Positions 6,476-56,648 of a stretch of DNA of 56,648 nucleotides are shown here, piece after piece (position 1 is the stretch's first letter; each line of letters starts with the position of its first letter). Under the pieces are notes generated by a model. The model saw only the letters and a list, made by a program, of their open reading frames with translations. It was not told the DNA's origin and ran no database searches. Both the position numbers and the translations under genes were made by a program. This stretch comes from Prorocentrum cordatum. Taxonomy: Eukaryota. Where the stretch lies: positions 62,001 through 118,648 of the forward strand of contig CAUYUJ010000079.1 in NCBI GenBank assembly GCA_963575745.1, read 5' to 3'.

Positions 6476-7127
<652 letters not shown>

Positions 7128-7133
7128 AAGATC

Positions 7134-7235
7134 TGTGATTGATGATACGTGTTCAAGCCAAGGCAAAAGGGGCCCCTAAGAGCCAAGCGGCGGCGAGTGG
7201 CGTACGAGCGTGTCATACACACACAATATATCACA
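7134..7235 (-). repeat. 3' LTR of copia element A
   Basis: TGTGAT...ATCACA ends. 4 mismatches versus 16549-16650. Confidence 0.95.
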
Positions 7236-16548: not shown

Positions 16549-16650
16549 TGTGATTGATGATACGTTTTCAAGCCAAGGCAAAAGGGGCCGCTAAGAGCCA
16601 AGCGGCGGCGAGTGGCGTACGAGCGCGTCATACACACACTATATATCACA
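16549..16650 (-). repeat. 5' LTR of copia element A
   Basis: Direct repeat of 7134-7235, followed on the minus strand by the PBS. Confidence 0.95.
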
Positions 16651-32934: not shown

Positions 32935-33462
32935 ATGAGGAGGAAGAGGAGGAGGAGGAGGAGGAGGAGGAGGAGGAGGAGCAAGAGGGGGGTGAGGAGG
33001 AGGAGGAGGAGGAGGAGGAGGAGGAGGAGAGGAGGAGGAGGAGGAGGCGGGGTAGGAGGAGGAGGACGAGAAGGAGGAGAAGGAGGAATATGAAGATGAT
33101 GATGTATAGGATGATGCGAATGAGGAGGAGGAGGAAGGAGGAGGAGGAGGAGGAGGAGGGAGGAGGAGGAGGAGGCGGGGAGGCGGGGGACGAGGAGAAG
33201 GAGGAGGAGGAGGAGAAGGAGGAGGAAGATGTGGATGAGGAGGCGGATGATGAGGAGGAGGAGAATGAGGGAGAGGATGAAGAGGATGAGGAAGATGAAA
33301 AGGAGGAGGAAAAGGAGGAGGCGGAGGAGACGGAGGAGGAGGAGTTGTGGAGGAGGAGGAGGAGGAGGAGGAGGGGGAGGAAGGGGAGGAGGAGGAGGAA
33401 GAGGATGCTGCTGCTTCTGCTGATGATGTTGTTGTTGATGATGGCGGTGATGGTGATGGTGA
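32935..33462. repeat. (GAG)/(GAT) microsatellite
   Basis: Seen directly. Confidence 0.95.
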
Positions 33463-33549
33463 TCGCACGTAGCTTCGCGCAACGCGTCCTTTGTCCCAGG
33501 CCATTAGCGAGCGACCCGGACTCCAAGGTGATCGTTGTAAAATGAATCA

Positions 33550-36500
33550 GAGGGCGATCCAGCCGACCGCACCCTCAGCTTGTGGTAAAGTTTGAAAGCC
33601 AGTGCGAAAAGGATAGCTGCGCGCTCCCGCGAGGTCTCCCCCGTGTACTAGTGTTCCTGACCGAGACCCAGACCCGCGATGACCGAGTTTGGGAGCAAGG
33701 AGCGAGGTTAGGGCAGGAGAGGCAATGTGAAATCGGATCCCCCGCCCCCCTCCCCTTTCCCCCTTTTGCACCCAAAAACGAACCACCCCCGCTGGCCCAG
33801 GATGTGCATTCTGCGGGTGGTGATCCACCCGCCCGGAAGGGTTTTGAGGACGGACCAAAAGACGGTCGGGCGCGTTTTCGCCAGGATCGCACGCAGCTCG
33901 GACCATCGAGGGGCCAGGGGCGGGGCCTGAATCGTCGGGAACCAGGCTCTCGCGCGCTTCTGCAGGGTCAGGCTCTCGGGTGGGCGGAGGGGGGCACGAG
34001 TGTAAACGGCTTGCCACTTCGGGCGTTTTTGAAGCATGTCGGCGAGGGCGGCTGCTTGATTGGCCTCGGCAGCCGCGGAGCGCTGGGGACCAGAGGGGGC
34101 ATTCGGGAGCGCGACCGAAAAGAGACGGGCGCGCAGGAAATGCACGATGCTCTGGTCGCGCCAGGACGGCGGGGACCCAAGCTGCTGGACGTGGCGAACG
34201 ACGGCGTTGCCCGACCACGAGACTTCAGACAGCTCGCCGTGTCAGGCTTGAAAGTTGGAAATCGCGGCGCGCGCCGTGCGCCAGCTGTTCGCCGCAGAGT
34301 AGGCGGCCCTCGACGTCGGGGCCGAGCGCGGCGCCCACGCGCGCAGCGACCAAACATCGGTGCCCGTCATCGAGCACGGCGGCAGCTTGAGGAGCTGGCG
34401 AATGCAGCGCGGCTCCTTCGCGAGCAACGTTTTTGGCGGCAAGTAAAACTACGCCGCGTAGCCTGGGGCGGGGAGAATCGCGACTTGGCACAGGCGGAGC
34501 GAGGAGCCAGGAGGAGAGTCGGAGGCCGAGGTCATCAGGATTCTCTCTCCCGCCACTTCTGCATGCACGCCGCCCATTGCTGGTCGTTAGCGGCGTCGGG
34601 GCCCAGAAAAAAACGCCAAGGTATTTGGCGGGGCCTGCGATGAGAAAGGATTGCCATTCCGGGGCCAGCTGGCGCAGCATCGCGCGCGCTGCGCTACATA
34701 GTCTGCGCACTGGGCCCACGAGGGGGCGATCGCGCATTTCAGGGGGCGAAGGCGAGGCGAGGCGAGGCGAGGCTCGAGGCCGAGGCGAAGGCGGGGCAGA
34801 GCGAGGAGAGGCGCGTGAACTTGGCCAGGACAGCGCCGAGATCATCTGCACATCAACCAATCGAGGCCTCGCGAGGGTCAGGTGGGAGCGCCGGCCCCAG
34901 CGAACGAGTGATGGGAGCGCCGGCCCCAGCGATGCCCCGCTGAGCGGGCATCCTTGCATGGCCCCCGAATTGATTGATCCTCGGCAGCGGGGCAACCTCG
35001 TCGCGAACGCGCGTCGAGGCCAGCGCAAGCGAATCAGAGGCCGCGAATCGCAGCGAGGTGCCCTGGCGGTAACCCCATGCGCGCGAGCACCGCGGACAGC
35101 CACGTGCGATTCATGCTTGGGAACGCTGCTTTGATGTCAAAGGCGACAAAGAGCGGGAGACGGCAGTCGGCCTGTCCATGCTATCCGACCGCTCACGCTC
35201 GCGCGCCTAGCTTGGTAATGTTCTGGCAAAAACTGCGACCGCGAGTGAACCCCCGTTGGGTTTCGTGGACCCTGATCTGCGCTAGCTTACTGAGCGGCGA
35301 GCGGCTAGTTAATGGCCGAGGCGAACGCCTTGGCGCTGCAGTTCTTCAAAGGGAGCGGTCTGGCCCCCGACGCGTCGCGAAGGCAGTCGAGAGCATCGCC
35401 TGGTTTGTCGCCCTCCTGCGGGAACACGAATATGGAATGATTGAAGGGGGGGGCCAGGAAGGGCGCTGAAGAGGCGAAGGAAGACGGGGTAGAGGGACTC
35501 CATGGTGGCAGGAACCGCCAGCAAAGCTTGATATGGAAGCCGATCCAGGCCAGGCGCTGACTTCCGACTCCGCTTGAACGATTGAGACAGGGCTGCGAGC
35601 GACGGGATTGGCAGGTGAGCGACTGGGAAATACGGTGAGACCCTGCTCAGAAAGGCGTCGATTTCGTCCCTGGAAACGCGTTTATCCGAGAAGATCGGGG
35701 CCCAGTGATGCCGGGGTGCGCGGGCCGCTTGCTCCGGCTCTCTGGCCACCGGGCGCAGATTGGCCCCGCCTCCGATGGCGCGCGGACGCTGCGCAATCTG
35801 ATCGGCGGCGATGCCGCGCGAGGGAGGCGCTTTGAAAAAGGCGCTGGAAGCGCGGCGCGACGCTGCAGCGCGCGTCGAATACGCCGCTGCTCCTCCAGAG
35901 TCGGCTGGCCATTCGCGCGGGGCGCGCGGTGAGGCGCTGGGTGCTGCTCGCGCGCGTACCGCGCTTGGTTGTTGCGGACGACGGCGTTTCGAAACCCAAT
36001 CGAATCGCGCAGCTGCGGGGGGGGGGGGGGGGGGGGGCGACGCGCCCGCGAATATCTGCCCACGCTCTGCGGTGGCAACTAAACGGCGGGCGGCAGGCAG
36101 ATCGGCGCGCCAAGTCGCGCGGGCAATCGCCCTGAGCGCGAGGCGCCTGGTCTCCAGCGCGCGTCGCCTGCGCCGAGCGGGGGGCGCTGGAGCTCGTTGC
36201 GGGCGAGCTCGGCAGCCAGGGTCATGCTTTGCTCAGTGACGTCGCGTCGGCGAAGGTCCGCCATGGTGCCCAGCTCTGCCTCGCTGAGCATCTTCGCGAG
36301 GAAGGACTTGTACTGCTCGGGGCGAAAGACGAAGTCGGCGATCGGGCGCTGGCCCTTCTCTTGTGGCTGGCGAGTCTCGATCGCGAGCTTGGCGATGGCG
36401 TGGTCACTGAGGCGCCTGTCCTAGAGTGGCGACGAGTCCTGCGCGATGTTGAGCTCGCAGCGCAGGCGCGGGATGAAAGGGGGCAGGAATGGCAGCGAAG

Positions 36501-37193
36501 ACCGATCGTGGTGCCCGCCTGGTGACGCTTTGAGGAATAAGTCGGGATGTCGGAGCTGGCGCCAGAAGCTCTGGTTCTGCCGGAAGCGGACCTCGACGGT
36601 CTGGCGGCGCTGGCCGGCCTGAGGGACGAGGTGCGACTGCGAGGGCTCGTCGGAGAAGTTGAAGTCACCCATGGCGAGGAACGCGAGGCGGGGCGGGGCG
36701 CTGTTGGACCGCTGCGCGTGGGTGGCCCGCTCGTCGCGGAGCTTGATCTTCTGGGCGTCGCTGAGGTCGTCGTTGTGCGCGTTGAGGGCGCGGATCTCGC
36801 GGTCGGCGCTGCGGTTGGTGATCGCGATGAGCTGTGGGCGGCCGTCGACGACGATGCGGGGCGCGACGACGGGCTTGAAGAAGGACGGGGAGCAGCCAGC
36901 AGCAGCATCTTTGCGAAGCTGTTCCCTTTCCGCACGCGCGAGACCAGGTGCGGGGGCGGCGAGGCCACCGGCGCCCCGAGTCTCGCAGCCCCGAAAGTTG
37001 CCGCGGTTGGAGGCCGAGGAGGGAGAGCGCGCCAGCATGGTCTCCAGCTCAGCCTGCGAGCCGTGGCACTCCTGGATGAGGACGAGGGCCCGCGGGCGCA
37101 GGGCGTTCTGCAGCTTCCGAAACTTGAGGCGGCATCGTCTGGGTTGGGGCAGTGAGGCCCACGCGCGTTCCAGGAGGCGATCTGCAGAGGCAT
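33550..37193 (-). pseudogene. Element C ORF2 (APE endonuclease + reverse transcriptase), multiply frameshifted
   Basis: APE motifs MPLQIASWNARG, ALNAHN, MGDFNF, SDHA. RT motifs SAPGLDRLPY, RPLSLKN, QRGFTRGR, FDIKAAFPS, QGCPLSG, CADDLG (~34836-34853), KYLGV. C-terminal GWITTRRMH..ISHCLSCP. Confidence 0.85.
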
Positions 37194-37229
37194 TGTGCTC
37201 GGTGGCCTCCCACGGGGCCCAGTTGCTGT

Positions 37230-38699
37230 TGAGTGGGCCACGCCGAGGTGTCGATCGAGACGCAAGAGGCCTCGAATCTCTGCTTGACCATCTCCTCGTT
37301 GATGCCCATGGACGCGACCGCCGCGGGGCCCCGGTTGAGCTTGGAATGCTCGTGGAGGCCCTGCGGCTGGATCTCCACGATCGGCAATTGCGCCCGACTG
37401 TGCGATGCCCGACTGGGGCAGCGTCTTGAAGGTGACGTCAGGGTACTGCTCGCGCAGGATGCCCGCGACGCGCTTGGTCTGAAGCTCCTTGCGAACCTAC
37501 ATGGGCGACTTGTCGGCGGAGACGTAGAGCGGCGCGGCGGCGCCCTGGGCGTTGGGGGCCGAGAGCGCGCGCCATCTGCCACCGATAAGCTCAAGGGCGC
37601 GAGCGAGAGCGAGTGCGCGGGGCCGAGCGACTTCAGGTCCGCCACGAATGTGCACATGAAAGCGGCGAGCGGGGGCATCCTCGAGTAGTTGCACACGTTC
37701 GGCAGTGAGCTGGGCGTCCTGCATCCAGGGATCGAGGGCGCGACGTGCTTCAACAGGTTGGATGTTGCTCGGGGCGCCGATCTGGAAGAGGCACGGGTCC
37801 GGTTCGCGCTCGTAGTCCGCGAGGTTGGCGAGGTCGACGGAAGGGATTTGTTGCGCTTCTGCAAGAGAGACTGCTTGTTCGAGGCGGCGTGCGGCTTGGC
37901 CAAGATCTTCTTGCCGCGAGGCTTCTTCATCTTGGAGGCGGCGAATTTGTCGAAGGTCACGTTCTGCTTGTTCAATGCGGGCTTGCTGCGGGGCGTACTG
38001 CTGCTCGATGGTTGCGCGAAGATCATGTTGGACATTTTCCCAGGTCGTGTCGAAGAGGTTGCGGAGCTGTGAGGTGGACATGGTAAACTGCGCGTTGACC
38101 ACGCTCTCACTGGCAGCAGAGAGTCCAGCTGGTGCAGAACCTCCAGGAAGCTGTGGAAGCTGTGGGGGAGGCCCTGGGAGAACAGCTGCTGGGCGTTGCT
38201 GTCGTGGTGGTCGCGGTTCCGCGGGTCGCTCGGCAGCGGCTGCTGCAGCGTGCTGTGGAAGAGCTGGATGCGGCGCAGCGTCTGCTCGAAGTTCTTGTGA
38301 CGGAAACGTTGGGGCCACCTCGAGTTCGGCAGCGAGGCAAGCAGCGTCTTCCTGATCCATGGGGAGATCATGAGCGGCGCCTTGAAGAAGAGCAGATCCG
38401 GGGGCCTCACGGTCACGGGTTCCGCCGGATCCTGCAGATCGTCCCGGTCGCGAGGCACTGGTTGCTGTGGAGCGTCCCGATTGCCAAGGGTCTCGTCGTT
38501 GTAAAGGGTCACGTCTGTCTGAGCGATCACGGTCTCTGTCGCGGTCGTCGCGTCGTCGTTCACGTTCGCGTTTTTCCTCACGGCGTTTGGTTTGCCGAGC
38601 GCCGCTGCGTCGAGCACCGCCTCCTTCCGCCGATACCCCGCCACTTTTGGAGGCACGAGAACCTGTTGCAAGGGAACCGTCCGAGCTAGAAGATGACAT
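37230..38699 (-). pseudogene. Element C ORF1 (R/D-rich N-terminus, coiled coil), interrupted by TAG at 37497
   Basis: ~400-aa ORF from ATG 38699 with a heptad-like QQARIEQAERDLRQIRRLQ segment. Lies between the SL and ORF2. Confidence 0.6.
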
Positions 38700-38986
38700 A
38701 GTGACGGGTCGAAGAAGCACTGTTAACTGGCGGCGACGGCCTGTTGATAGGTGCTGAGATAGGCGGAGAAGAGCACGTAGGCGGCAACGAGAAGGATGGC
38801 GCTGGGCTGGGCCTGCAGCGAAAGCGGTGTGCCAGGGGCGCGAGGCTCAGTCCTGGGCTTTGATACGGAAGTGCCAGGGGCGCGAGGCTCAGTGCGAGGC
38901 TCAGTCCTGAGCTTGAGTCTGGAAAGGATCGCGCTGAGGAGTTTCTGAAATACCCCGCGAAGGCAGTGAAAAAGACGCCAATGGCC

Positions 38987-39008
38987 CTTGAGCCAAAATG
39001 GCTACGGA
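38987..39008 (-). other. Perfect genomic copy of the dinoflagellate spliced leader (DinoSL)
   Basis: Reverse complement is TCCGTAGCCATTTTGGCTCAAG, a 22/22 match to DCCGTAGCCATTTTGGCTCAAG. Confidence 0.95.
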
Positions 39009-39932
39009 ATGATGATCATGATGACGTGATGATGAGGAGGAAGAGGAAGAGGAGGAAGACGAGGAGCAGGCGGAGGAGGAGGGAGGAAGAGGAGGAGGAA
39101 AAAGAGGAGGAAGAGGAGGAGGAGGAGGAGGAGGAACAGGACCAGGAGAAGGAGGAAGCCGAACGAGCCGAATGAGACAATGCGGCATGCCCCCTCGCTT
39201 GCCGTGAAGGGGGTCGATCCCCCCTCGGCGCCTGCAGCCGCAGACGGCGCCAAGACGTGTCCCCTGGATCCCCGCCTCCGCCCGAGCGCAGGGGAGGCCG
39301 AACCCAGGGGCGGCACCGAGGCGGGACCGCCCCCCCCCCCCCGGAGCCCACTCACCCTTCCCTGAGCTGCCCCGCTACGCAACACGCAAAACACGTAGCG
39401 TATTGATACGGAGCTCAGCCCGTAGGCCGAAAACGAGGGTCCGATGCGATACGTTCGCAAAAAAACGAGGTCCAACATATGGAGCCAACACGCAGCGCAT
39501 TGACACGGACGTCTTGAGTACGATACGTGTTGCGTATCGAAACGTGCGCATCGAGGCAGCTAAGACCCTTCCTGCTTCTTCTCCTCAAGCCACGCGCGGC
39601 CAGACCACAGAGTCCGGACCACGACCAACTCAGTCTGGCAGATGAGGGGGACAATGCAGAAAGGTTCACAAGCGCCGCCGCGAAGCCCGCCGGACCCCCG
39701 ACCAACTCCGCGCAAATCGAAAAGCAAAACGAGTTCCAGCCCTTCACCACGTCGGTGGCCTTGCAAGCTGGGGCAGCCTGGATGTCCTGCTTCATTGACT
39801 CCCAGGCTTCTGCACACCGCGGTCAGCAAGGGTGGCAACAGGAACGGCCCACAAAGCCATCGCTCCCGCGGGCTGCGCCGCTTCCAATCGCGCCCGCGGA
39901 ACCCTGGGCGCTGAGCTCCGAAGGGAAGCGGC

Positions 39933-42471: not shown

Positions 42472-42618
42472 GGCTGAAATCGACGCTGTCATCCCCGTCT
42501 TATGCTGTGTTATATTGCTCTCTTCTCTCGTGCATGACCGCAACCGTTTTGGTTTACAGAGCTCTTGAGTTTACGGGCACCATTCCCCAATCCCCCGACG
42601 GTGGCGGCCGTCAGTTGA
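42472..42618 (+). repeat. 5' LTR of element B (termini eroded)
   Basis: Matches 47718-47870 with about 7 substitutions and a 4-bp indel. Lacks the terminal TG and CA. Confidence 0.9.
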
Positions 42619-42630
42619 TGGTAGCGGAGC
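42619..42630 (+). promoter_or_regulatory. Primer-binding site (initiator tRNA-Met-like) of element B
   Basis: TGGTAGCGGAGC directly after the LTR; same pattern as iMet PBSs such as TGGTATCAGAGC. Confidence 0.75.
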
Positions 42631-42913
42631 GGACCGGTTCGCCGTGGTCCACTCCCGCCTCCGCGGCTCGCGGAGGACTGCATATCGAGCCCTGTGGGTA
42701 GGGCTGCTGGCCAGGCCTGCAGGGAGCGGGAGCACCACGGCGCGGGTTGTGGCGGACCCGCAAGAGCTGGACCACCTGGGCGGAGTCCAGCGAAGCTGGC
42801 AACACGGCAAGACTGTGTGTGCATCATTCCGGCAGCGCGGCACGGCCGCGTGTGCACTCGCGAGCTTGATCACGGCTGCTCTGACAACGAGCAGAACCGC
42901 TGCAACTCCGAGC

Positions 42914-45900
42914 ATGGGGAGAACTTCGAGGCTCGCCTTCGAGAAGGACATCCCGCTCTACGACGGCGACCCATCGTTGTTCGAAGGATACCAAGAGCGG
43001 GCCAAGGACGCCGTCTACGGTCGCATGGGCGACGAGAAGCAGATTGCGACGCCGATCAACCTGCGCAACGGCCTCTCTGGCACCGCATACGACGCGGTGA
43101 GGTCGCTACAACATCAGGAGCTGCTCACCTTCATCGAGGAGACCGTCGATGCTGGAGGCAAGGGCGGCGGCACGGTGACGCGCAAGAGGGCGACGACACA
43201 GGGCCTGGAGTTACTGCTGAGCACCCTGGGCGAGTCCGTCCTGAGGGAGAGGCCCGTGCGCGCCGCGGAGCTGTTCGACGGCGCTCTGTACGATGGAAGT
43301 GTGTGGCGTGGCTCAGGAGAGAGCATGCAGGAGTAAATTACCAGGCGGACGAAGGCGTTCGACGATCTCGAGAAGGTCTCGCAGGAGACCAGCACCTCAG
43401 ACGATTTGCAGGCGTACATGCTGCTGAAGTTTTCGGGCCAGTCGGATCATGCCAGCATCATCAGCAGCGCAGGCAACAATTACGATAAGGAGGCGTTCGC
43501 GAAGGCGCTGCAGATGCAGCACTCAGGTATTCACGAGCGGGATCGAAACTACAAGAAGGACATCAAGCAAGAGGCGCACCGCTCGGACCCGAAGCCGCAG
43601 CGCTACCAGCAGCAGGGTCAGTACCGCCCCCGCCAGGCGTGGCAGGCAGAGCACGACGACGAGCACGACCACTACGACGACGGCGACCACCGCCAGCTCG
43701 ACCACTGCTACGACGATCAGCCCCCGGAAGATGAGATCTACTTGGGCGAGGAGGAGGCTACGCTCGAGGAGATCGACGAGATGGGTCCGGAGGCGGCGGA
43801 GAGCTTCGCGGCGATCGTGCAGAACAAGCAGAGGTTTCAGCAGGCTCGAGGCGGTGGACGATGCAAGGGGGGTCGCGGACGCGGCAAGGGCGGTGGTCGT
43901 GTCGACGGCAGTTCAAGTTCGAAGGACCGAGCCCAAGGTGGAGGTGCCTCAGGCGACGGCGGTGAGCGACGCGCTCGCATCGAGAAGCTAAAGAGAACCA
44001 CGAGGTGCGCCAGCTGTGGGCAGATCGGCCACTGGCATGGCGACCCCAGTTGCCCGAAGTCATCGCGATCGGCGGCTCCACCTTCGGACAGGCCGAAGAC
44101 TAGCTACTTCAGTTTCAGTGACTTCAACGGCGTGGGCGGCAAGAGCGGCGAGTCCAGGATCGCGGAGGTGTTCGTGGCGGCTGCCTCGCCTTCGGTTACC
44201 TCCGAGCTGGGGGCTCGCCCGAGGCCTAAGGCTAGGCCCTCAGCAAGACGGCCGCGCAGGGCGGCGACGAGACGCTAAGGGACAGCGCGGACGATGGGAA
44301 TAAAGCTGCTGGGCTGCCGAGGAGGCGAGGCCAGGCGTTGCCAATCATGGGGAAGCCATGCGTGCACGCGCTGGCGGCGGACCCCAGGCTCTTCAAGGGC
44401 GCGAACGAGACGCACAGGTACTTGACGTGCCACCGGTGCCTGCCCGACAAGATCGGCATCCACGTGGTCAAGGCGCACAGGACCAGCTGCGAGGAGCTTT
44501 GGAAGTATCTCACGGCATCATTGCTGTTCACGCCGAGAGGCAGGATAATTTTCCCGGTGGAGGCGGCACCGGCGGCGTCTACGAGGGCAGCTTCGTCCTC
44601 TACTTCGACGGGCGCTGCGCGGTCTGGCAAGTACGACCGAAGCGTACCCAAGGCGAAGCTCGCAGCGCAGGAGGTTATCACCAAGAAGGCGATGGAGATC
44701 AAGGCGCCGTCCGACGACGAGGAGTGGGACGCGCTCCCGACCGCCGAGGAGTACCCGCACGAGGAGGACCGACACGATGAGCAAGTGTTCGTGGCCTACC
44801 CGGCGGACTTCGACCAAGACGTCAAGGGCCTCGACATCGAGAATGTCCCCCTCGGCAGCTAGAAGATCAAGGTTGGCAGGTACAGGGGCTACACCTTCGC
44901 GGAGTTCGTGGAGAGTGGCCCCGCGGCCCGTGTGTATGGCAAGCCTCCCATCAGGACGGCGATGGCTAGCGACCAGTCCCGGCTCTCCGTTGACCAGTAC
45001 CGGTTGGCCTGGTTCCTGATCTACCTGATGGCGCTGGGCGAAAGGGACCCCCCGTAGCAGAATGAGGACGGGTCGTTCCAGGTGCTGATGAGCAACGGCT
45101 CCCAGGATGGCGCCGAGGCCTACGGCTCCTGCTCCAGGTATCCTCCTTGCACTGCGGTGCTTGACACAGCTTGCCAGATGACAATGCATGGCGCGCCCTG
45201 GAGGGGCAGGTACGAGGAGGAGCTTCTCTCCAGGAAGCTCAAGACGGCTCCAAGGTCTCAGCAGACCAAGTTCCGAGGAGTCGGCGGGGACGCGCGCAGC
45301 GACACGGTGTATAACATGCCAGCGGGCATCGCCAGAATCCCGTTCGCGATCGAGTCCGCAGAGCTCGATCAGGACGCGCCTCTGCTCATCTCCAAGGACA
45401 CGCAGTCCAAGCTCGGGACGGTCATCGACGCGGCGAATGCGGTCGCCGACTTCACCGAGATCGGCGCTTACAACGTACCCCTCTTCAAGACCAGCGGCGG
45501 CCACCTGGACATCAATCTGCTGGACTTCCCAGACCCAGGGGTCTTCGGTCTGGAGCTTCAAGCCTACATCGCTGAGGACGAGCTCGGCGACGGTTTCGAT
45601 ACGTTGGAGATCCCGGAGGCGGAGGTGGCGATGCAGACGGTCGAGGCGTTGGCGACGGAGATGGCCTTCGAGAACCCCAACGAGATCGACTGGGACAATG
45701 ACGAGTCCATCAGGATGGCCAGCTCGAGGCGCGCGAAGAAGGTAAGGGCCATGCACGACGAGCTGTACACCATCGACTCCTGGTCACTCGACATCATGAT
45801 GGGAACTACTACCAGGAAGAGGCGACTACCCAGGGGGAAGACCATTCTTCTGCGGCCAGTTCGGCCTTACCCTGCTCGCCTCGACTACCTTCGGCTATAA

Positions 45901-47600
45901 CTGCGGCCAGCCCTTGGACATCGAGGACGGCTGGGATGGCGCTTCCAGGAAGGCCGACAGACGGCGAGGAGGCAACTGCTGGAGGAGGACCCCTATGTGA
46001 CTATCATCACCATGCCTTGCGGCCCGTGGGGCGAGTGGGGCCGCTGCAACCTCTCCAAGGGCGGAGCCGCGGCGGCTACAGTTCAGGAAGCTCGGGAGGC
46101 TATGAGGCCATTGCTCGCGCTCTCCGACCAGAAGATCGTTGCTGACCGGGTGAGACGCGGCATGTACGTCTTGATGGAGCAGCCCCTTGGTTCAAGCGCC
46201 TACTTCGAAACCGAGATGACCGAGGCGCAGGAGTTGATGAAGAAGGGCTTGCTCCTAGAGTGCACCCCACACGGGTGCCAGCTCGGCTATGCCGACGAGG
46301 AGACCAAGGAGCCGCACTACAAGCTGATGAGGTTCCTGACGACCAGCACGGCAATCGACGAGGCGCTGCAGAACGAGAAATGCTCAAGGGACCACTATCA
46401 CCTGCCGTTGGAGAATCAGAAGAAGACGCGGGCGGCAGCGAAGTGGCCCGACAAGCTGGACAGGCTGGTACTACACGCGGTCGAGCAGCAGATCGACCTC
46501 GACGTTGACGAGCACATCTCGCAGGGGCTCGGGATCCTGGAGAGCTACGCCGTCGAGGACCAACGCGAAGCGAAGAAGCGGAGGCTGCGTGGCAAGCAGC
46601 CCCTGAAGCGTCCTCCAGCTGAGGACGGGAGTCATGAGCCGCAGGGACGTGGACTTCCACCTGAGGACGGGCCGGCGAAGGATCCTAACGGAGTTCGAGC
46701 AGAGCAAGCCGCGGGCCTCGAACCCGTGTTTTCTGCTGAGGAGCGAGACCGTCGGGCGAGATGGCTCACCTATGACCCCGCGGTCAGGCGCGACATCAGG
46801 AACTTGCACGTCAACTTCGGCCACCCGACCAACGTGACGCTGTTGAGGTGCCTGAGGAGGTCTGGTGCTAAGAAGGAGTTCCTGGACTGCGTCTGGGATT
46901 TCAGGTGCGACGCCTGCGGCGCATGATCAGGACGAAGTACGTCCGCCCAGTTCGCATGCCGGGCCGCTATCAGTTCAATTTCCACGTGATGCTCGACACG
47001 CTGTTCGCCCACAATGCCGAGGGCAACACCCACGCCTTCCTCAATATTGTCTGCGACGGCACGAGGTTTCAAGTCGCTTGGTACCTCCACAAGGGCACAC
47101 ACGCCCTTTCGGCCAAGGGCGCGCTAGACACGTTTCTCACGGTGTGGGCGAGCTGGGCGGGGCTGCCCCAATCTATCTTCGTGAACCGTGGCAAGGAGCT
47201 CGCTAAAGAGTTCCTGGCCCACATGCACGAGAACGGAGTGGAGATCCAGAACGCGGCCCTGGAAGCACACGAGCAACTCGGCAGGATCGAGCGGCTGGGC
47301 GGCGTCTGGAAGGAGGCGTGGCATCGCGTGGTGCAGGATGCCCAGATCACAAAGGACAAGGACCTCAGGAACGTGTGCGGTGTCATCAGCCAGGTGCGCA
47401 ACGAGACAGTGATCTACGACGGCTACGCTCCTGCTGGCCGACGCCTTGACGAAGCTCCAGGCGGAGAGGAGCTGCCTTACGAACGCGATGATGGACGGCT
47501 ACGTGACGGTGCAGGTGTCTTCCGAGGTGGTCGCTGCCAAGAAGGCCATCCGGAGCGCGCGGCGCCGCCGCGCAAATGAGCGCAGGAACCAGTCCTGCGC
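42914..47600 (+). pseudogene. Element B gag-pol with stops and frameshifts: Gag, CCHC, protease, DNMT, integrase, RNase H tail
   Basis: IPLYDGDP, ESMQE*ITRR, CASCGQIGHWHGDPSC, VLDTAC..FRGVGG..PLLIS, LHVNFGHP..CDAC, VMLDT, GRIERLGGVWK, LADALTK. Confidence 0.85.
45835..46490 (+). pseudogene. C5 cytosine DNA methyltransferase-like domain in element B (frameshifted N-part)
   Basis: FCG (45848-45856), PLDIEDGWD, catalytic MPC (46012-46020), MEQP, CQLG, HYKLMRFLT, AAKWP. Confidence 0.7.
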
Positions 47601-47717
47601 TAGCGGTGCCTGCGACCAAAAAAAGGCCGTCTTGTCCATATGTGGCCCAGCCTGGGCCCTCTTTTCCGCTGCAATGAAGTTTTCCTCAGGTTTGTCTGGG
47701 CTGACAGCGAGGACGGG

Positions 47718-47870
47718 TGTTGAAATCGACGCTGTCATCCCCGTTTCATGCTGTGTTACATTGCTCTCTTCTCTCGTGCTCGACCGCAACCGTTTTGGTT
47801 TACAGAGCTCTTGAGTTTACAGGCGGACACCATTCCCCAATCCCCCGACGGCGGCGGCCGTCAGTTGACA
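47718..47870 (+). repeat. 3' LTR of element B
   Basis: TGTTGAAATC...GTTGACA, 153 bp. Confidence 0.92.
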
Positions 47871-48383
47871 GGAGGAGGAGGAGGAGGAGGAGGAGGAGGA
47901 GGAGGAGGAGGAGGAGGAGGAGAGAAGAAGGGAAAGGAGAGAGGAGTAGGGGCACCGAGGAGGAGGAGGAGAGGAGGAGGAGGAGGAGGAGGGAGGAGGA
48001 GGAGGAGGGAGGAGGAGGAGGAGGAGGAGGAGGAGGGAGGCAGGAGGAGGAGGAGGAGGAGGGAGGAGGAGGAGGAGGGAGGAGGAGGGAGGAGGAGGAG
48101 GAGGAGGAGGACGAGAAGTAAGAGGAGAAAAGGAGAGGGAGGAGGAGGATGAGGAGGAGGAGGAGGAGGAGGAGGAGGAGGAGGAGGAGGAGGAGGAGGA
48201 GGAGGAGGGAGGAGAGGAGGAGGAGGGAGAGGAGGAGGATGGAAGGAGGAGAGGAGGAGGAGGAGGGAAGGAGGAGGAGGAAGGAGGAGGAGGCAGGAGG
48301 AGGAGGAGGAGGAGGAGGAGGAGGAGGAGGAGGAGGAGGAGGGGGAGGAGGAGGAGGAGGAGGAGGAGGAGGAGGAGGAGGAG
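47871..48383. repeat. (GAG)n microsatellite separating elements B and D
   Basis: Seen directly. Confidence 0.95.
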
Positions 48384-48402
48384 ACCGTAGCCTTGGCTCA
48401 AG
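48384..48402 (+). other. Relic dinoflagellate spliced leader
   Basis: ACCGTAGCC---TTGGCTCAAG is DinoSL with a 3-nt deletion, placed exactly at the microsatellite/element border. Confidence 0.85.
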
Positions 48403-48529
48403 GCCGTTTCCTTCTTCAGGTGGTTTCGCCTCCATCTGGGAGGGGTCAGGGCTCAAGTTTTCTGCCCTCAGGAGGGCACCCTTTTTGAACAGATCACGGA
48501 TTCACACCAGATCAGTGCTCCAGTCAGAC

Positions 48530-50254
48530 ATGGTCCGCGACGGAGAAGCAGTCTGGTGGTGCCCTTGCGGTCGCTACAACAAGTTGCGCTACCAGTCGTG
48601 CCTGTGCGGAACCAGCGTCCGCAACCAGGTCGCCTCACCGGTTGGCAAGGGCAAGGGCAAGGGCGCACCTCGCGCCAGAACGCCTGGTCGGCGCGGGGAA
48701 GAGCGTCGCAACCGTCTTCACGACAACTCGATGCAGCAGAACTCGGCTCAGATCCAGCAGGTCCTAGCCAAGATTCTCCCAGCCACCAAGTCCGTCGCGG
48801 AAGAGCACGAGAGGTTCGTCTCCCCGCCCGAGGACACCAAGAAGTATCCAGTCTTCCGCGACTCGCTCAAGTTTCGCATGCAGGCTCTGGGCTTTGCTGT
48901 TTACGCCGCCCAGCAAGCAGACGCGGAGGACGAGACAGCGGTCGAAGAGATCGCAATGATCAAATACACGTTGTCGGCGCTCAACCCGCTGCCCCAGCAG
49001 ATACTGGAAGCAAAGACGAGGTTGCAGCGCGCAGTAGACAGGCGCAAGGGGCTCCAGACCAAGATCGCCGAGATGGAGGAGTCGCTTGCATGCCTGGACG
49101 ACGAGATCTATGCCATCGAGGACGGCATCCAGCAGCTCGAGCAGTCGCTGGAGGACGAGGAGATGATGGTCGAGGAGGACGACCAGCAGCCGCCACCTCC
49201 GCCTGGAGGTGGCAAAGCGGAGGCGCTGCCCAAAGCCGGGCCCTGGGGGGCTCCCCATCACGGGCCAGGCACAGGGCAGCAGCCCCAGCAGGCGCCAGGC
49301 TTTCCGCCGAAGCAGCCGCCGTCACAGGCGCCGCCACAGCAAGTGCCAGGCTTTCCGCCGCAGCCGCCGATGCATGTGGCAGGAGGTGTGCCGCCACCGC
49401 CTCCGATACCGCACCAGATGGCGCCGCCAGACTTCAACACCCAGCTGGCCCAGATGCTCTACAATCTCGTCTCCAACCAGAACAGGATGGACCAGGCCAT
49501 GGGTCAGATCGTTGGTGCCATAAACAACCTGGGCTTGGGTCAGCCAGCCGCTGGCGGGCCCCAGGGCGTGACTCAGGCACCGAGGGCTTTCCAGACAGCC
49601 GCGGGCCCAGTGCAGCAGCCTGCAACATCACCGTCGGAGGCGGAGGGTCACCCACCCGGACTGCCAGCAGCTGGCACCCACGGGTTCGGTCAGCCGCCGA
49701 CCTTTGCCTTCGGTCAGCCAGCCATGAATTGGAGCGACCCGAGGCACCCGAATCACAACCAGTACCTCTTGGAGAAGGCCGCCCAGGAAGCGGTCGACAA
49801 GGTGCCGAAGTCTACGCCCGTAGAGAAGGACGAGCCCAAGACGCCGACGCCAGTCGGAGGTACAGCTACACCGATCTCGACGACGCCGCCAGCCAACTCC
49901 CTGGAGCAGCAGTTTCACGCCGCGATGGCATCGGGCGAGACCATTCACGTCCCATCGTCAGCAGAAGAGGCCGCGGCAGCTGTTTTGGGCGAGCCATTGG
50001 TCTCGCAGTATCCGTCACCTACTCAGGCATGGGGGCCAGCTTCTGCCCTGGCGGAGGCCACACCCTACGCGGAGATGCTGGCGCCCACGCAGTGCATGGC
50101 CACCCAGGGCGAGGCGATCCCAGGTCCAGCGACCTCGTGCACCTCGCCTCTCACGGCATCGACTGCGGCCTCGGACGGCCCGTCACCGGGCGCGGCCAGC
50201 CGAATGGACAAGAGCCGCTCACCGCCGCACAAGCTTCAGAAGACCGAGGACTAG
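48530..50254 (+). CDS. Element D ORF1, 574 aa (N-terminal Zn finger, coiled coil, P/Q-rich tail)
   Basis: WWCPCGRYN..QSCLCG (RanBP2-like), heptads LQTKIAEMEESLACLDDEIYAIEDGIQQLEQSL, intact frame. Confidence 0.75.
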   Translation: MVRDGEAVWWCPCGRYNKLRYQSCLCGTSVRNQVASPVGKGKGKGAPRARTPGRRGEERRNRLHDNSMQQNSAQIQQVLAKILPATKSVAEEHERFVSPPEDTKKYPVFRDSLKFRMQALGFAVYAAQQADAEDETAVEEIAMIKYTLSALNPLPQQILEAKTRLQRAVDRRKGLQTKIAEMEESLACLDDEIYAIEDGIQQLEQSLEDEEMMVEEDDQQPPPPPGGGKAEALPKAGPWGAPHHGPGTGQQPQQAPGFPPKQPPSQAPPQQVPGFPPQPPMHVAGGVPPPPPIPHQMAPPDFNTQLAQMLYNLVSNQNRMDQAMGQIVGAINNLGLGQPAAGGPQGVTQAPRAFQTAAGPVQQPATSPSEAEGHPPGLPAAGTHGFGQPPTFAFGQPAMNWSDPRHPNHNQYLLEKAAQEAVDKVPKSTPVEKDEPKTPTPVGGTATPISTTPPANSLEQQFHAAMASGETIHVPSSAEEAAAAVLGEPLVSQYPSPTQAWGPASALAEATPYAEMLAPTQCMATQGEAIPGPATSCTSPLTASTAASDGPSPGAASRMDKSRSPPHKLQKTED

Positions 50255-53200
50255 ACTCGGAACAGGGTGAATTGCATCTACCACGTCAGCGACGACGACT
50301 TCACTGGGGATCCGTTCTGACCAGGCCTTTTGTTTCAGGTTCGAGGGTATTCGTTTCAGCCCTCAACTCTCAGCAGCAGCCTAGCAGGTCGATTTTAATT
50401 AAAAGTCCGTCGCAGCAGCATCAGTCTTTTAAGCATCCTTCCTCCCCCCCCACTGTCAGAGACCATGGTCCGGTCGACGCGTCCTTGTTGTGTAAACACG
50501 AGCTCGCTCCCGTGCTTCAGTTGCTGTCAGCTGGCCTCTTGCGTTTAAGTGACGCTCTCACGTTCGCTGCCTCGCACTTGGTTTCGGTAAGTTCGAGGCA
50601 TACAGTTTCACGTGTCGCTAGGCCTAGTGGCCAAGATCTGTCACCACCACCCTGTGGCACTCTCCCTCCTGGAACCCCCTCTCCTGGGCGTGTCAGGCTT
50701 TCTCTGGAGCGCACTTTGTTCAATCCTGGGGACAAATCGGTGAAGTGCGACTTGGGAGACGGTGACAGACTCCTACGTGCTGTTCGTGATAGCGATCCTC
50801 TGTTGCTGGACGCCACGATGACCAGCGACCAATACCACCCAGCTGCCATCATGGCACTGGAAGTTTCCGACAGGGCAAGTGACATCGGAGACAGCATCAG
50901 CATATACACGGATGGGTCCCTTAGGAAGAAGGACGACTACACATCTTGGGCTTTCGTGGTTACCAGCATCCAGGGGGACACGCTTAACTACTACGGGCAC
51001 CTCAAGGGGATGACGGGCCTTTCTGTTCCTGGGGAATCACTACCTACTCTTGAATCCAGCACCTTCTGCGAGCTCCTGGGGATCGTTTGGGCTCTGGTCT
51101 GGGTCTATCAAGGGCTGTCCCTGGGCACCATAGGGACCAATACCATCATCAAGATTTACTCGGACAGCACCAGCGCGCTGGGACTTGCGCAGGGCTTGTT
51201 TGTTCCTTCGGCTTTCAGAGATACCGCTGCGGTTTCTCAGCATCTTTTCGCCACCGTCCAGGCTGCAGTTTGCTTGGCAGTTTACCATGTCTCTGCGCAC
51301 TCGGGCAACCCCTGGAACGAGCTCGCGGACGGGATCGCGAGCGATCAGGATGTTGGCCCCAGTCCCCTCCCTAGCTCGATCGTTCAAGATCTCTACCATA
51401 CCGTTGATCTGGATTGGGCCTGGATCACTCACCTGGACGAGGATCGTCGCTCGGCCTACCCCCTCGATGGTTCGGGTCGTTTGTCTCTCCCCCTCGTCCC
51501 CCATGGGTGTCGTGAGGACTGGATCGGATCGAGCACTCCTGAGGCCCCCAAGGTCAAAAGATCGATCAGATATGATTTCTCTGTTGTCAGTTTCAACGCC
51601 CTTACTGCTAAGGAAGACGCTGATTCCCTCGCTCGTGAAGACGAGGCGGACTTAGGTTCAGCCGCAGGACACTCGGCGGTCCTGATGCGGCAGCAGTTTG
51701 CTCACATGAACGTCCTCCTTGCTGGCATCCAGGAGGGCCGCAACAAAGAGGGATACAGGCTGGCCAACAATTACCTTATGTTTCGTGGCCCCTCACACAA
51801 TGGAAACCTTGGGTGTGAAATCTGGGTTAACGGGGCCCTCCCTTACGCTCGTGCTTGCGATCGGGAGTTCTTCCTGGAAAAGAAACACTGTTTGGCGGTC
51901 CACGCTTCTGCTAGATGCCTCATTTTGAAAATCAACGCCCCTCTGTTCAGGATTGTGGTGGCCTCTTGTCATGCCCCCCACAATGAGGAGCCGTTTACGT
52001 CCCGTCAGGCCTGGTGGAACCACCTGAGCGAGTTATTTTTGCGCTTCAAGGTGGACTGCTGTTTCATTGATGCCAACTCCAGAGTTGGAGTCAACTCGAC
52101 TACTTCGAGGTGTGGAGATCAGGGTTTTCCGCAGGCGCCTGACAGCTCCGGAGGCTCTTTTTGAAGTTTCTTGAGGAGGTCAACCTTAACGCGGTCAATA
52201 CGCTCTTACCTAACCTGGACGGCCCCGAGAAGGCCTATACCTGGACTGCTAACAATGGGAACCAGCACAGGCTTGACTATATTCTGATGTCTGACTATTT
52301 TTACAAAAACATGGTTTCGGTTAACACGTGTTTGGATTTCGACATTCAGAGGGACAAGCCTGATCATTACCCGGTTGTTGGGGTCTTTCGGGCTCTCCAT
52401 AACAAGGATATTGCGCCTCCCAGGGATACCATCAAGAGGGAGCTCACTAAGGACCCCCACCGCCGAGAGGCTTTCGCCATATTGCTGCGGAGTGCCCCCA
52501 CTGTTCATTGGAATACGAATATTAACGAGCATTATCGAGTTTTGGTTTCGCACATCATGTCGTCTGCTAACATTGCCTTTGGTACCCCAGCTTCAGTTCC
52601 CAATAAGCCGTACATCGACGAAGCTTTGCTTGCAGTAATTCATTTCCGGAGGCGTGTCAGGCAGATTATTCGCTCGAGCAGGAGAAAGGATTTCAAGGCC
52701 TTCATTTGGCACTGTGCATTATGCTCGGCGGGCATGCTCGACCTATCAGCACTGCCCGACAGGATTGCTTACCTCGCCATTGAGTTCGTCACCATGTCAG
52801 CTAACTACGGGTGGGGATATACTAGTTTGGAAAACATCATCAGAGCCATGGGCATGTTCCTCCAGAGGTCCCAGAAGATCCTTCGAAAACACATCAAACA
52901 AGCTAGGGACGACAAAATCAACAACCTCGGCAAGGAGCTTAGTGAGCAAGAGTTGGCTGGTCAGGCCTCATTGGAATGGAGCACGCTTCACACTCTGCAG
53001 AGGTTCGGTGGCAAAGCAAGTAGGTTCTGCTCGGACGGCCTACCGATGCGCATCGACGATCAAGGCAAGGTTTTGGACAGCGATAAGGCTATCGCTGACG
53101 AGACACTCCGCATTTTCGGGGCCAACGAGCATGCCAAGATACAGAAGCTAACTGCCCTTTGCTTGGACTATAACGCTCAAGTTAGTACGGACACCCCGGA

Positions 53201-56200
53201 GGAAATCAAGCTTGAAAATCTCTCTAGTCTCAGGACCCTCATGATTTCCCTCACCAGGTCGAAGAAAGGTAAAGCTGGGGGCCTCGACGGGGTCATTCAC
53301 GAGCTTTACCAAGCGGCTGTACCGGAGACGGCTGCCATGCTTTTACCCTTGTTCCTCAAGATGCAGATGCTTTGTCAAGAACCGTTATGGGCCAAAGGAG
53401 GCCTGGCTGCGAGCATTTATAAAAAAGGTCCCTGGGTCGATCTGCACAACGATCGGCAGATTTTACTCGGGTCCACGGTCCTTAAACACCATCATGCTTT
53501 CGTTCGCCGTGCCTTTGTTCAGATAGCCACACAGCTGATTGGCGAGTGCCAGATGGGAGGTCTACCGCATCGAGGCACGGACCTCGCCTACCTCAGCTTG
53601 AGCCTGTTTCAGACCATCTGCGAGCAGATGGGCCTTTCCTCCATCATCCTCTTCTCTGACCTCACCCAGGCTTTCTACTCTGTCATCCTCCAGTTTGTCT
53701 CCTCCCTCAAGGGACAGACTCAGGACTTGGAGGCCATCTTGGACGATTTGAAGGTCCCTGAATGTTTGACCCCCTTCTTAGAGGCCGTGGTGGCTTCCCC
53801 CAAAATCCTGGACGATTTTGTGGACACTCACGTTCACAACATGGTCGCCGAAACCTTCAGGACTCCTTGGTTCGAAGTCAAGGGCTCTTCGGCCCTGGCT
53901 CAAAGCAATTCTGGTACCCGCCCTGGGATGCCCCTGGCCGATTTTATATTCAACATCAGTTTCAAACCCGTTCAGGACGACATACACACTCGGTTAGGTG
54001 CTGCTGGCCTGCGGTTGCAGTTGGACGAGCTTCCAGATGCCAAGCGTGTTTTTCGAGCTGCAGACGGCAGTCAAGACGCTACAGCTGCGCAAGGATCGAC
54101 CTTTGTGGACGATCTCATTACTCTTGCAGTGATTTACGACAATCGACTTTGGCGACCAGCTGTTGAAAAAACAGTCGAGATTGTGCATTCAGCAGTGCGA
54201 GCTCGTGGTTTTGTTCCCAACTACGGCCCTGGCAAAACGGAGATCATGGTCGCGTTTCGGGGCCCCCAGGCCAACAAGTGTCGTGCTGAGCTTTGCCACG
54301 GTCCTGCTCCCAGGCTCCAGATAGACAAGTACGACCTCTCAGTGCCAGCTGCAGTTTCATACAAGTATTTGGGCACCATGGTCGATAGGTACGCTAGCAT
54401 GGGCCCCGAGGTCTCCTACAGGATTAATCAACAAAATGGCGCCCTCAGCACTCTCAAGAAGCACGTGTTCAGGAACCCCAATATCGAGCCTAATACTAAA
54501 GTCAAGTACGCTAAGGCCCTATGTTCCTCGAGGCTCCTCTACAACAGCGAGATATGGTGTGGTCTTACGGTTGCTCAAAGGGATCGCCTTGACAACGCCC
54601 ACTCCCTCCCCTTCCGCTATGCCACAGGGTGTTTTAATGCTAATCCCTTGTTGGACAAAGAGCCAGCGGCCAAAGCACTGAAGTTGGCCAATTCTGTTCC
54701 CGCGTCTATGCTCATTCGCCTAAGGAGAATTCGGTTGGTCTCGAAGCTAGCTCGTTTCGCCCCCAACATCCTGCGGCATATGTTGGATCTGGCCCTGCAC
54801 TTCTGTGCTGGGTGGGCGGGCGAGCTCATAGGTGACTTTGGATGGTGGAGTGACTTCCTGGACCTCCCTGGCCACCACAGGCCGATCGGTGATTTTTCCT
54901 GGTGGATTTTTTGTTCCCTGGATGGGCCCCAGTGGAAATGCTGGTGTAAAAACGTTTTAAGCGCAGTTACCCGTACCTTTGCTGATCAGGCGGACCTGCA
55001 ATGCTGGCACAGCCAGATCCGCCACCTATGCATTGATGATAATATCCCCCCCCCTCCCTCGGTGAGCCTTCCTCCTCCCACCCTTTTATATCCGTGTGAT
55101 AATTGCGACTTTGTCGCTAGGACGCTCGCCACTTGGAAGGGCCACTGTACCAAGGCCCATCCCTCTCTCGACCCAGCCCAGGCCGTTGCACGTGGAACAG
55201 TATGCCAGAGTTGTTGTCGTGAGTTCTGGACCCATCCTCGTCTCTTGAAGCATGTGAGGAGATCCGCTCGTTGCCTTTCTTCCCTTGTCGCGGTTATGAC
55301 GCCGCTTAGCGATGAAGATATCTGCGCTGACAAGGTTGAAGATGCGTTTCTCACCAAAGCCCTAAGGCAAAAAGGTAGATATGCAGAATTCTCAGAGTCT
55401 CCCCCCGTGGCTATCATAGGTCCGCGGCTTTTGGGTTGCCCTTGCTCGCCTGTTTGTGCCTTGTCGCGCCAGCCGGTTGAGGCTCCTGAAACCGAAGTTG
55501 TTCCCGCCCAGATTGATAGACCCTTAGCCACGGGGGTGTATTATATTTTTAGTCTTTTTTCCGGTCAGAGGCGCCCCAAAGACACGCAAGATTACCTAGA
55601 AGGCTTTCTCAGGGATAGCCCCAGGCCGGTTCTGTTTTTATCCATGATATTGTAAACGATGCCAGAGTCGGTGACCTCACCCGCCCTGTGTCTCTCGCTA
55701 TCCTGCTCAACTTCATACGTTCTGATCTTGTGCTCGCTATGTTGTCAGGACCTCCATGTGAAACATGGAGTTGTGCCCGTGCTCAGCCCCCGCCTGAAGG
55801 TCAGGACCGCCCCCGCGTCCTCCGCTCCTCCTCCTCCCTCTGGGGGCTCGGGCACATTTCCCCCAAGGAATGGAAGCAGGTCGCCCTAGGTAACGCCCTC
55901 CTCAGGGCGACCCTGCTGCTGGGCATGGCCGCGGCGGCGCACGGCGCCGCTTTCATCATGGAGCATCCTGATAGGCCGGGCCCCTCCCATCTCCCGAGCT
56001 GCTGGTCCCTCCCCGAGGTTCGGCATTTTACGGGGTTGATTGGAAAGGCCGCTTGTTCGTATGTGGAATTCATTTCGATTGATCAGTGCGAGTTTAATGC
56101 CAGAGGACAGAAGCCGACTTGCCTGCTCACAGTGAATGCTCCGAGAGTTCGTGAATGGCTAGATTTGCTGCCCAACAGGGGTCGCTGCAGTCACGGGTTT

Positions 56201-56452
56201 AATCACCCCCCCCTCCTTGGTCTTTCCTCCCGTGGAGGCTTCAGGACAGCCGCGGCCAAGCAGTATCCACCGAGGCTCTGTCGCCTCCTCGCTGCTGCAG
56301 TTCACGAACAGTGCTCGGCCCTTTCCCCCCCGACCGAACCTAGGGACATATGGGATGCTGTTCACCCTGAGTTAGCGGCGTTTTATACCCCCCTCGATCC
56401 CTACTATCTGGGGCATGGTTGGGATTGGTTTGGGGCGGATTTTGCCGCTTAA
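50255..56452 (+). CDS. Element D ORF2: RNase H, APE endonuclease, RT, C2H2 Zn fingers, C5-DNMT. Two 1-nt frameshifts (~52160, ~55645); start codon uncertain
   Basis: RNH IYTDGS/ELLG/YSDS/HSGNPWNELAD (50900-51330). APE SFNALT/GIQEGR/HAPH/IDANSRVG/RLDYI/DHYPV. RT KAGGLDG/SDLTQAFYSV/GTRPGMPLAD/FVDD/YKYLG. ZnF CDNC..H..H and CQSC..H..C. DNMT LFSG/S.DI..GDL/GPPCETWS/MEHP/KPT/QYPPRLC. Confidence 0.9.
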
Positions 56453-56541
56453 CCCCCCTCTCCTCCCTCGCCTCCCTCCCCTGCATGTTCCTTGCTGCTG
56501 TTGCTGTTGACACCTCGACCTCATGGTTCTCAGGGGAGTGC

Positions 56542-56648
<107 letters not shown>

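Follow-up and report, generated by a model that had tools for sequence, protein, structure and literature searches.

Relic copies of the dinoflagellate spliced leader (DinoSL, or SL) are recognised marks of retroposed genes (Stephens et al., 2020, PMC7245778; PMC6050394; PMC12014239), and the statement of an earlier note on this DNA that such genes keep relic leaders is well known from the available parts of these papers. Reviews, in their available text, give the drivers of the massive retroposition in dinoflagellates as unknown (PMC6050394; PMC12014239; PMC11453091). The GO term "RNA-dependent DNA replication" was reported as enriched among DinoSL-tagged genes and was read as a sign of active machinery; tagged genes of reverse transcriptase (RT) type were not taken as SL-capped elements, and the T-run of the leader was proposed as a retrogene promoter (Song et al., 2017, PMC5585692). 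The locus described here resembles DinoSL-tagged retrogenes in that a genomic SL with its last base at the exon boundary heads the unit, candidate relics follow it and trans-splicing would have preceded reverse transcription. It differs in that the unit is an autonomous multi-copy LINE, with an ORF1 and an endonuclease (EN) and RT-bearing ORF2, which adjoins microsatellites.

LINEs associated with spliced leaders are known in another form from SLACS, CZAR and CRE of trypanosomatids and NeSL-1 of Caenorhabditis, which insert into the DNA of SL RNA genes and split the exon. These share with the present locus the joining of a LINE to SL sequence and the possibility of borrowing host RNA signals for expression, whereas here the full SL is located at the 5' end of the element in a microsatellite context and would be a product of RNA splicing. 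The 5' end of R2 is cut from a longer co-transcript by an HDV-like ribozyme. Microsatellite-targeting LINEs of insects and fish have reportedly been described by Kojima and Fujiwara; two of the elements below (C and L144) resemble them in having the same repeat on both sides and a tail made of that repeat, a likeness of flanks, and the third (D) lacks matching flanks in the DNA analysed. L1Tc carries a 5' module consisting of Pr77 and a ribozyme, and its transcripts are described as unspliced in the available text (PMC1874656; PMC8190864). In R2 and L1Tc, as here, what sets the 5' end is either processing of the RNA or a short module at the start of every copy, but the processing proposed here is SL trans-splicing, which would supply the cap as well. 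A selfish element with the host leader at its 5' end is also found in dinoRNAV, a +ssRNA virus of Symbiodiniaceae (Levin et al., 2017, cited in PMC9651163), which is an RNA virus and not a retrotransposon.

The stretch analysed, referred to as the window, comprises 56,648 nucleotides of Prorocentrum cordatum DNA. It has a GC content of 60%, is rich in GGA-type microsatellites, and looks like a microsatellite tract which took several insertions (Table 1).

Table 1. Features of the window, in positional order, with strand and the basis of each assignment.
Feature	Position	Strand	Basis or remarks
Open frame, 1123 aa, running off the window start	1-3372	+	Weak PIF1-like helicase match (E 0.008)
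650-nt (ATGT)n array	6477-7127		Repeat scan
Ty1/copia-type LTR retrotransposon, ORFs of 1161 and 1381 aa	7134-16650	-	RVT_2 (E 7.5e-13) in 7814-9052
47-nt tandem repeat array, about 19 copies plus variants	23058-24174		Repeat scan
3' flank of C, (CAT/CAC)n running into (CTC)n, same repeat kind as on the 5' side	32937..33463	- (C's strand)	Repeat scan
ORF2 remnant of C, several frames, about 4 kb	33547..37496	-	Piece 35312-36232 matches region N-terminal of RVT_1
ORF1 of C, open, 400 aa, basic N-terminus, coiled-coil-like middle	37497..38699	-	No Pfam family
5' UTR of C (289 nt from the SL to ORF1), with a duplicated ~24-nt segment	38700..38976	-	Sequence inspection
Candidate eroded relic SL, GGCCATTGGC, directly behind the SL of C	38977..38986	-	2 edits from GCCATTTTGGC word, post hoc
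Perfect 22-nt DinoSL, first bases of element C	38987..39008	-	Sequence match
(CTC)n then CAT-type repeats, pyrimidine-rich on C's strand, ending at the SL of C	39009..39156	-	Repeat scan
Element B, 5.4 kb, direct terminal repeats of ~135-150 nt	42476-47868	+	GGA repeats on both flanks
(AGG)n microsatellite running straight into the SL of D	47870..48383	+	Repeat scan
DinoSL with 3-nt deletion, first bases of element D	48384..48402	+	Sequence match, edit-distance scan
Exact GGCTCAAG, candidate older relic in the 5' UTR of D, 47 nt past the SL	48450..48457	+	Post hoc
ORF1 of D, 574 aa, RanBP2-like zinc ribbon at the N-terminus, coiled coil, P/Q-rich tail	48530..50254	+	Pattern match (zinc ribbon)
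ORF2 of D: RNase H, APE-type endonuclease, RT, Cys/His motifs, C-terminal part	50749..56452	+	Pfam, BLAST
(GTA)n at the 3' end of D, running off the window	56542..56648	+	Repeat scan; a family contig reaches it

The reverse complement of positions 38987-39008 was found to be the full 22-nt DinoSL, whose variable first base is here a T. The 21-nt DinoSL core has this single match in the window, with 0 mismatches, and none of 100 dinucleotide shuffles matched it at 3 or fewer mismatches, which bears out the claim of the earlier note that element C begins exactly with a perfect leader. Its second claim, that element D begins exactly with an SL relic, was also upheld: the site is the SL minus 3 bases, the missing bases falling in the A/T run. 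Searched on both strands by edit distance, the window yielded just these two sites at 5 or fewer edits, and 20 Markov shuffles of the window gave 0 SL sites at up to 4 edits. Both leaders are located at a microsatellite/element border, as had been described, with CAT-type repeats adjoining the SL of C and (AGG)n that of D. The tract before the leader is pyrimidine-rich in C and purine-rich in D, so that no common acceptor context emerges.

The bases which follow the terminal CTCAAG are GG in C and GC in D, where the donor of an SL RNA gene would be GT, and downstream of both leaders lies a UTR and then an ORF. The possibility that the two sites are SL RNA genes was rejected on these grounds. 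A genomic SL stopping at the exon boundary without the SL-gene intron is thus present in C (22/22 bases) and in D (with its 3-nt deletion). Both RT-bearing non-LTR elements of the window start with an SL, whereas its single LTR element, identified by RVT_2, does not.

DinoSL contains two AGs, one internal (GTAG) and one terminal (CTCAAG). The further eroded relics suggested behind the two leaders are weaker candidates, picked out post hoc: words of the GCCATT..GGC type (2 edits from the 11-mer) number 33 in 113 kb of both strands, one of them adjoining the SL of C, and exact GGCTCAAG occurs 6 times on both strands of the window. A canonical relic truncated at the internal AG was found behind neither the SL of C nor that of D, the candidates being short and eroded. 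Canonical relic arrays are present at other loci (L006, L020, L041, and L057).

Element D (48384 to at least 56541, plus strand) has a 5' UTR of 127 nt between the SL and ORF1, the N-terminal pattern of which is a W-x-C...C zinc ribbon; this N-terminus had no match among viral contigs. In the window copy ORF2 is read in three frames, with 1-nt deletions at about 52154 and 55644. The Pfam scores for RNase_H (E 1.6e-5) and RVT_1 (E 0.0022) are both just under the curated cut-offs. By BLAST, ORF2 matched the RVT_1-bearing ORF of contig L064 (E 1e-10 to 4e-12), and residues 180-455 of the frame at window:50749-52161 align to an L064 ORF with Exo_endo_phos (E 2e-14; Pfam E 1.6e-4 in L064), while a direct Pfam match for the endonuclease was absent from D itself. 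D is also detected by local HMMs for RT and EN that derive from five LINE ORFs. The Atlas clusters nearest to it all combine RVT_1 and Exo_endo_phos (scores 0.91 and 0.90), and a check for LTRs revealed no direct repeats flanking 48384-56541. D can be assigned firmly to the non-LTR retroelements (LINEs), the evidence for its APE-type endonuclease being indirect. A PDB sequence search with parts of ORF2 gave no meaningful match, and a word-indexed protein search with ORF2 gave one match, an unnamed Prorocentrum cordatum protein with 96% identity over 34% of the query.

The RNase H domain is located upstream of the APE endonuclease and RT in D (50749-56452, plus strand) and in its only relative, L064 (167-3188, minus strand). 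In LINEs of the I/Tad type, RNase H is placed after RT. It is also found behind RT in the independent LINE L144 described below, contrary to the order in D and L064. The domain order of D and L064 may mark a distinct dinoflagellate LINE clade.

Copies of D were surveyed by aligning Logan contigs of four DNA runs to positions 48340-56545. Run X1 yielded 124 contigs which span all 30 bins of D, and D is therefore a multi-copy family; 12 of these contigs are at least 99% identical to D, 59 are at 95-99% and 53 at 90-95%. The family is also present in three marine metagenome runs. Two contigs, one from X1 and one from the metagenome run X3, reach the 5' end of D. The aligner had skipped 48340-48392 as repeat, and the loose ends of both contigs consist of an SL remnant followed by the start of D's 5' UTR. 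The leader is located at the same junction in all three D-family 5' ends observed (3/3), in a different state in each: a 3-nt deletion in the window copy, another internal deletion in the X1 copy, and in the X3 copy a 3' half which is still canonical. Such divergence would be expected had every copy started out with an intact leader and then decayed independently. Other copies of D have one extra base at both 52154 and 55644, so that the frame breaks of the window copy are private; with these bases the three frames join, in a reading by hand, into one ORF2 of ~1,900 aa ending at 56452. The 5' ends seen were few: three belong to D and one each to C and L144.

Element C (about 33464-39008, minus strand) is less well defined. 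Pfam scans of its ORFs gave no match, but an HMMER search with the piece 35312-36232 of the ORF2 remnant found 29 relatives. In four of the eight relatives scanned, RVT_1 follows directly after the matched part above the cut-off, and in a fifth below it; since these relatives carry RVT_1 at this position, and no LTRs were found around C, C is taken as an RT-bearing element without LTRs. Core RT motifs and endonuclease-like motifs (in two frames) could be read by eye. The local RT and EN HMMs from five LINE ORFs had no match in C, and pairwise BLAST of its frames against the endonuclease of L144 was not significant. These results suggest that C is an older, frameshifted non-LTR retroelement, a classification which rests on the RT-adjacent region. 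The earlier description of C and D as LINEs is consequently firm for D, while for C it depends on this region, with the endonuclease motifs seen by eye. Likewise, the ORFs of C had been called badly decayed, which fits the ORF2 region with its several frames but not ORF1, which is open over 400 aa (38699..37500, minus strand). That the SL has stayed intact while ORF2 is frameshifted is unremarkable, because a few indels over ~4 kb rarely strike a given 22-nt word. When C and D were compared at the DNA level by BLAST with all collected SL loci, the SL itself was the only match.

The other elements of the window have no leader at their borders. Element B has terminal repeats at 42476-42609 and 47716-47868 which are 94% alike over 104 nt; it has no SL and its ORFs contain no Pfam family. 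The Ty1/copia element is bounded by 102-nt direct repeats (7134-7235 and 16549-16650, 96% alike), with no SL at its border. The open frame at the start of the window may be part of a Helitron-like element.

Public contigs were surveyed for the exact leader without a following GT-type donor. Prokaryotic MAGs contained 10 contaminant contigs with a genomic DinoSL, and metagenome contigs contributed at least 126 stretches, giving at least 145 distinct SL sites together with the MAG loci. One MAG contig, L144 (9,096 nt, GC 0.70), is an independent full-length LINE which starts with a perfect SL. In contig order it has (AGAGAGAC)n, the perfect SL, a 95-nt UTR and ORF1 with Zn_ribbon_RanBP (E 1.6e-7), then an ORF2 of 2536 aa with Exo_endo_phos (5e-9), RVT_1 (5e-11) and RNase_H (1.3e-5) by Pfam, and at the 3' end an A-run followed by a (GA)n tail. 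No sequence similarity of L144 to C or D was found. Zinc-ribbon ORFs resembling ORF1 of D and L144 lie behind an SL in L020 (with two canonical relics) and L073, and many SLs head long ORFs of no known family on contigs too short to reach RT. Ordinary genes were also found behind genomic SLs (scramblase, HMG box, 2OG oxygenase); these are retrogenes or possibly transcript assemblies. The LINE contigs L145-L147, from MAGs, begin inside an ORF, their 5' ends being absent.

In L064, the sole relative of D found (24-27% identity; RNase_H, Exo_endo_phos, and RVT_1), an SL accompanied by relic-like words lies 6 kb upstream of the LINE domains. This contig was considered as a second SL-capped relative of D and rejected, as this SL heads an ORF with CBM_20 (E 2e-20); L064 may represent a retrogene beside a LINE. 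Two contigs of one MAG, L005 and L009, have an SL at the contig start followed by related ORFs of no family (25-30% identity, E 2e-9), and L009 adjoins (GACA)n. These ORFs may represent ORF1 in one more family of SL-capped elements. L002, a 5.3-Mb MAG chromosome labelled Ekhidna sp., also contains an exact match to 23 nt of DinoSL, with no dinoflagellate-like context; the estimated chance expectation for such a match in that collection is about 0.2.

The association of leaders with microsatellites was counted over the 130 SL sites preceded by 31 nt or more of sequence, by inspecting the 30 nt directly before the leader. Among the matches listed, a microsatellite lies directly upstream of the SL at 15 of the 130 sites, compared with 0.6% of random positions drawn from these loci (155 of 26000), 0/130 mirrored positions at the other contig end and 0/142 stretches just after the leader. 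ATC-type repeats recur before the SL (L003, L041, L074, L076, and C). The same repeat is found on both sides of C (CAT-type) and of L144 (AG-type), which fits priming on, or breakage in, simple repeats. For D, identical microsatellites on both sides were not found within the window: the 5' repeat is (AGG)n and the 3' repeat (GTA)n, inside which the window ends. Inside such repeats a target-site duplication is unreadable.

Taken as a whole, the explanation which we favour, with a probability of about 0.75, is that C and D are unrelated non-LTR retrotransposons whose SL-trans-spliced and capped mRNA was copied to its 5' end and integrated at microsatellites. The SL stops at the exon boundary and the SL-gene intron is absent, which argues that the RNA template was trans-spliced before reverse transcription. 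The earlier proposal to this effect gains from the exon-boundary position itself, from the two further copies of D and from the unrelated L144. The simplest reading is that the template would have been a mature trans-spliced mRNA of the LINE, copied to the 5' end. The element RNA would receive the SL by trans-splicing and be capped as a mature mRNA, reverse transcription would proceed to its 5' end with the SL included, and integration would take place in or at microsatellites, whereby the SL comes to adjoin simple sequence. Given SL-headed copies, LINE RNAs would share the trans-splicing step of host mRNAs and then be copied in full. We infer that the SL-capped RNA is a regular retrotransposition intermediate of these families, rather than an occasional by-product.

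A new copy could in turn be transcribed from upstream by read-through, an AG in or at the integrated SL serving as the trans-splice acceptor which rebuilds the 5' end. Were the terminal AG used, the original 5' end would be restored exactly, as would fit L144 with its lone leader and D with its constant junction. Splicing at the internal AG would leave a 15-nt relic behind, and eroded candidates lie behind the SL in C, D, and L064. A promoter-free cycle, in which read-through RNA is trans-spliced at the AG of the integrated SL, is plausible. Retroposition together with the SL is open to every dinoflagellate mRNA, so that SL-capped copies alone are no proof of dependence on trans-splicing. A wider version of the proposal is that dinoflagellate LINEs as a class are promoter-free and SL-renewed, are steered to microsatellites by their endonuclease and priming, and also drive the retroposition of host mRNAs. 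This is tentative and, on present evidence, doubtful; if true, the same LINE machinery would account for mass retroposition of host mRNAs and thus for part of the huge dinoflagellate genomes.

The SL-headed copies might alternatively be occasional processed copies, made in cis or trans as with any retrogene, of LINEs which have their own promoter and normally use an unspliced RNA; the SL would then be without a role in the cycle of the element. Retroposition of SL-capped mRNA is common, with about a fifth to a quarter of genes carrying DinoSL relics according to the available text of PMC6050394, and the ordinary genes found behind genomic SLs point the same way. Against this reading, an SL is present at the same junction in each of the three D-family 5' ends, and the ORFs are intact in other copies of D. 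An SL also heads L144, an unrelated element, as it does the two non-LTR elements of the window, and no SL-less copy was present among the few seen, which leaves this alternative rather unlikely. A different role for the leader would be that the T-run of the integrated SL acts as a core promoter, the copies being transcribed from the SL with neither read-through nor renewed trans-splicing. TTT(T/G) in DinoSL has been proposed as a basal promoter (PMC5585692), and in giant-virus contigs the SL lies ~40 nt past a recurring AT-rich motif, as if transcripts start there. Transcription starting inside or after the T-run would drop the 5' part of the SL, yet the copies retain the full SL, and part of the T-run is missing from both the window copy of D and the X1 copy; we consider this promoter role very improbable.

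That the SL could represent target DNA, left by LINEs specific for SL RNA genes, has to be considered because LINEs of this kind exist. In these copies the SL exon is present in its entirety and ends precisely where the splice donor would begin, and it is followed by the UTR of the element rather than by a GT intron. Upstream is a microsatellite and not SL-gene sequence, and past the 3' ends there is no second part of an SL gene. An SL-gene-specific LINE of the SLACS/CZAR/NeSL-1 type was rejected for the same locus in view of the microsatellite flanks and the unsplit SL exon, and this origin is scarcely credible. A chance match, or an assembly chimera with cDNA, has an equally negligible likelihood, as no shuffle matched (0/100 and 0/20), the same junction is found in contigs of two other DNA runs, and the unrelated contig L144 has the same layout. 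The reading of trans-spliced LINE mRNA copied to its 5' end is accordingly the one retained here.

LINEs starting with the leader receive no mention in the available text of a 2024 review (PMC11453091), the P. cordatum genome paper (PMC10666404) or a 15-genome comparison (PMC8045281). No description of SL-capped dinoflagellate LINEs was found among openly accessible full-text articles. The finding is an expected extension of mRNA recycling to autonomous LINEs, with a new microsatellite link, and is apparently undescribed. SL-headed LINEs point to LINEs, besides Ty1/copia elements, as active retroposition machinery. An SL at the border provides a simple genome-wide marker for full-length LINE insertions, with relics counting rounds of retrotransposition, and the genomic link between SL and microsatellites is a new clue to the integration sites of retroposed cDNAs. 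If the cycle truly depends on trans-splicing, it would represent a new way for a LINE to manage without a promoter.

Exact DinoSL sites also occur outside retroelements. IMG/VR was found to contain 96 stretches with 104 distinct exact DinoSL sites, nearly all in giant-virus MAGs. These are the viral contigs L148-L227; the AT-rich metagenome contigs L012, L022, L037, L044, L055, L081, and L086, which have NCLDV-type genes, carry the leader too. The flanks of the giant-virus SLs have a median GC of 0.28, and 89 of the 104 leaders are followed within 150 nt by the start of an ATG-initiated ORF of 80 aa or more. Some 40-45 nt ahead of the SL there is a recurring TTGAAA or TTGATAAA-like / TTGATAAATCAATTTTTT-like word, and genes nearby include PolX, RecQ, RFC, FtsJ, and UvrD. 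This looks like leader mimicry by DNA viruses, with the DinoSL encoded in DNA and no trans-splicing involved; no report of a DNA-encoded DinoSL in giant viruses was found in the literature. The metagenome contig L049 (GC 0.66) combines two DinoSLs with an ORF matching Capsid_NCLDV (E 5e-17), and belongs either to a virus of high GC content or to a dinoflagellate in which an endogenous giant-virus gene was retroposed. The viral contig L195 has a DinoSL at its very start, followed by an ORF with RdRP_1 (E 5e-7), an arrangement which fits a virus of the dinoRNAV type.
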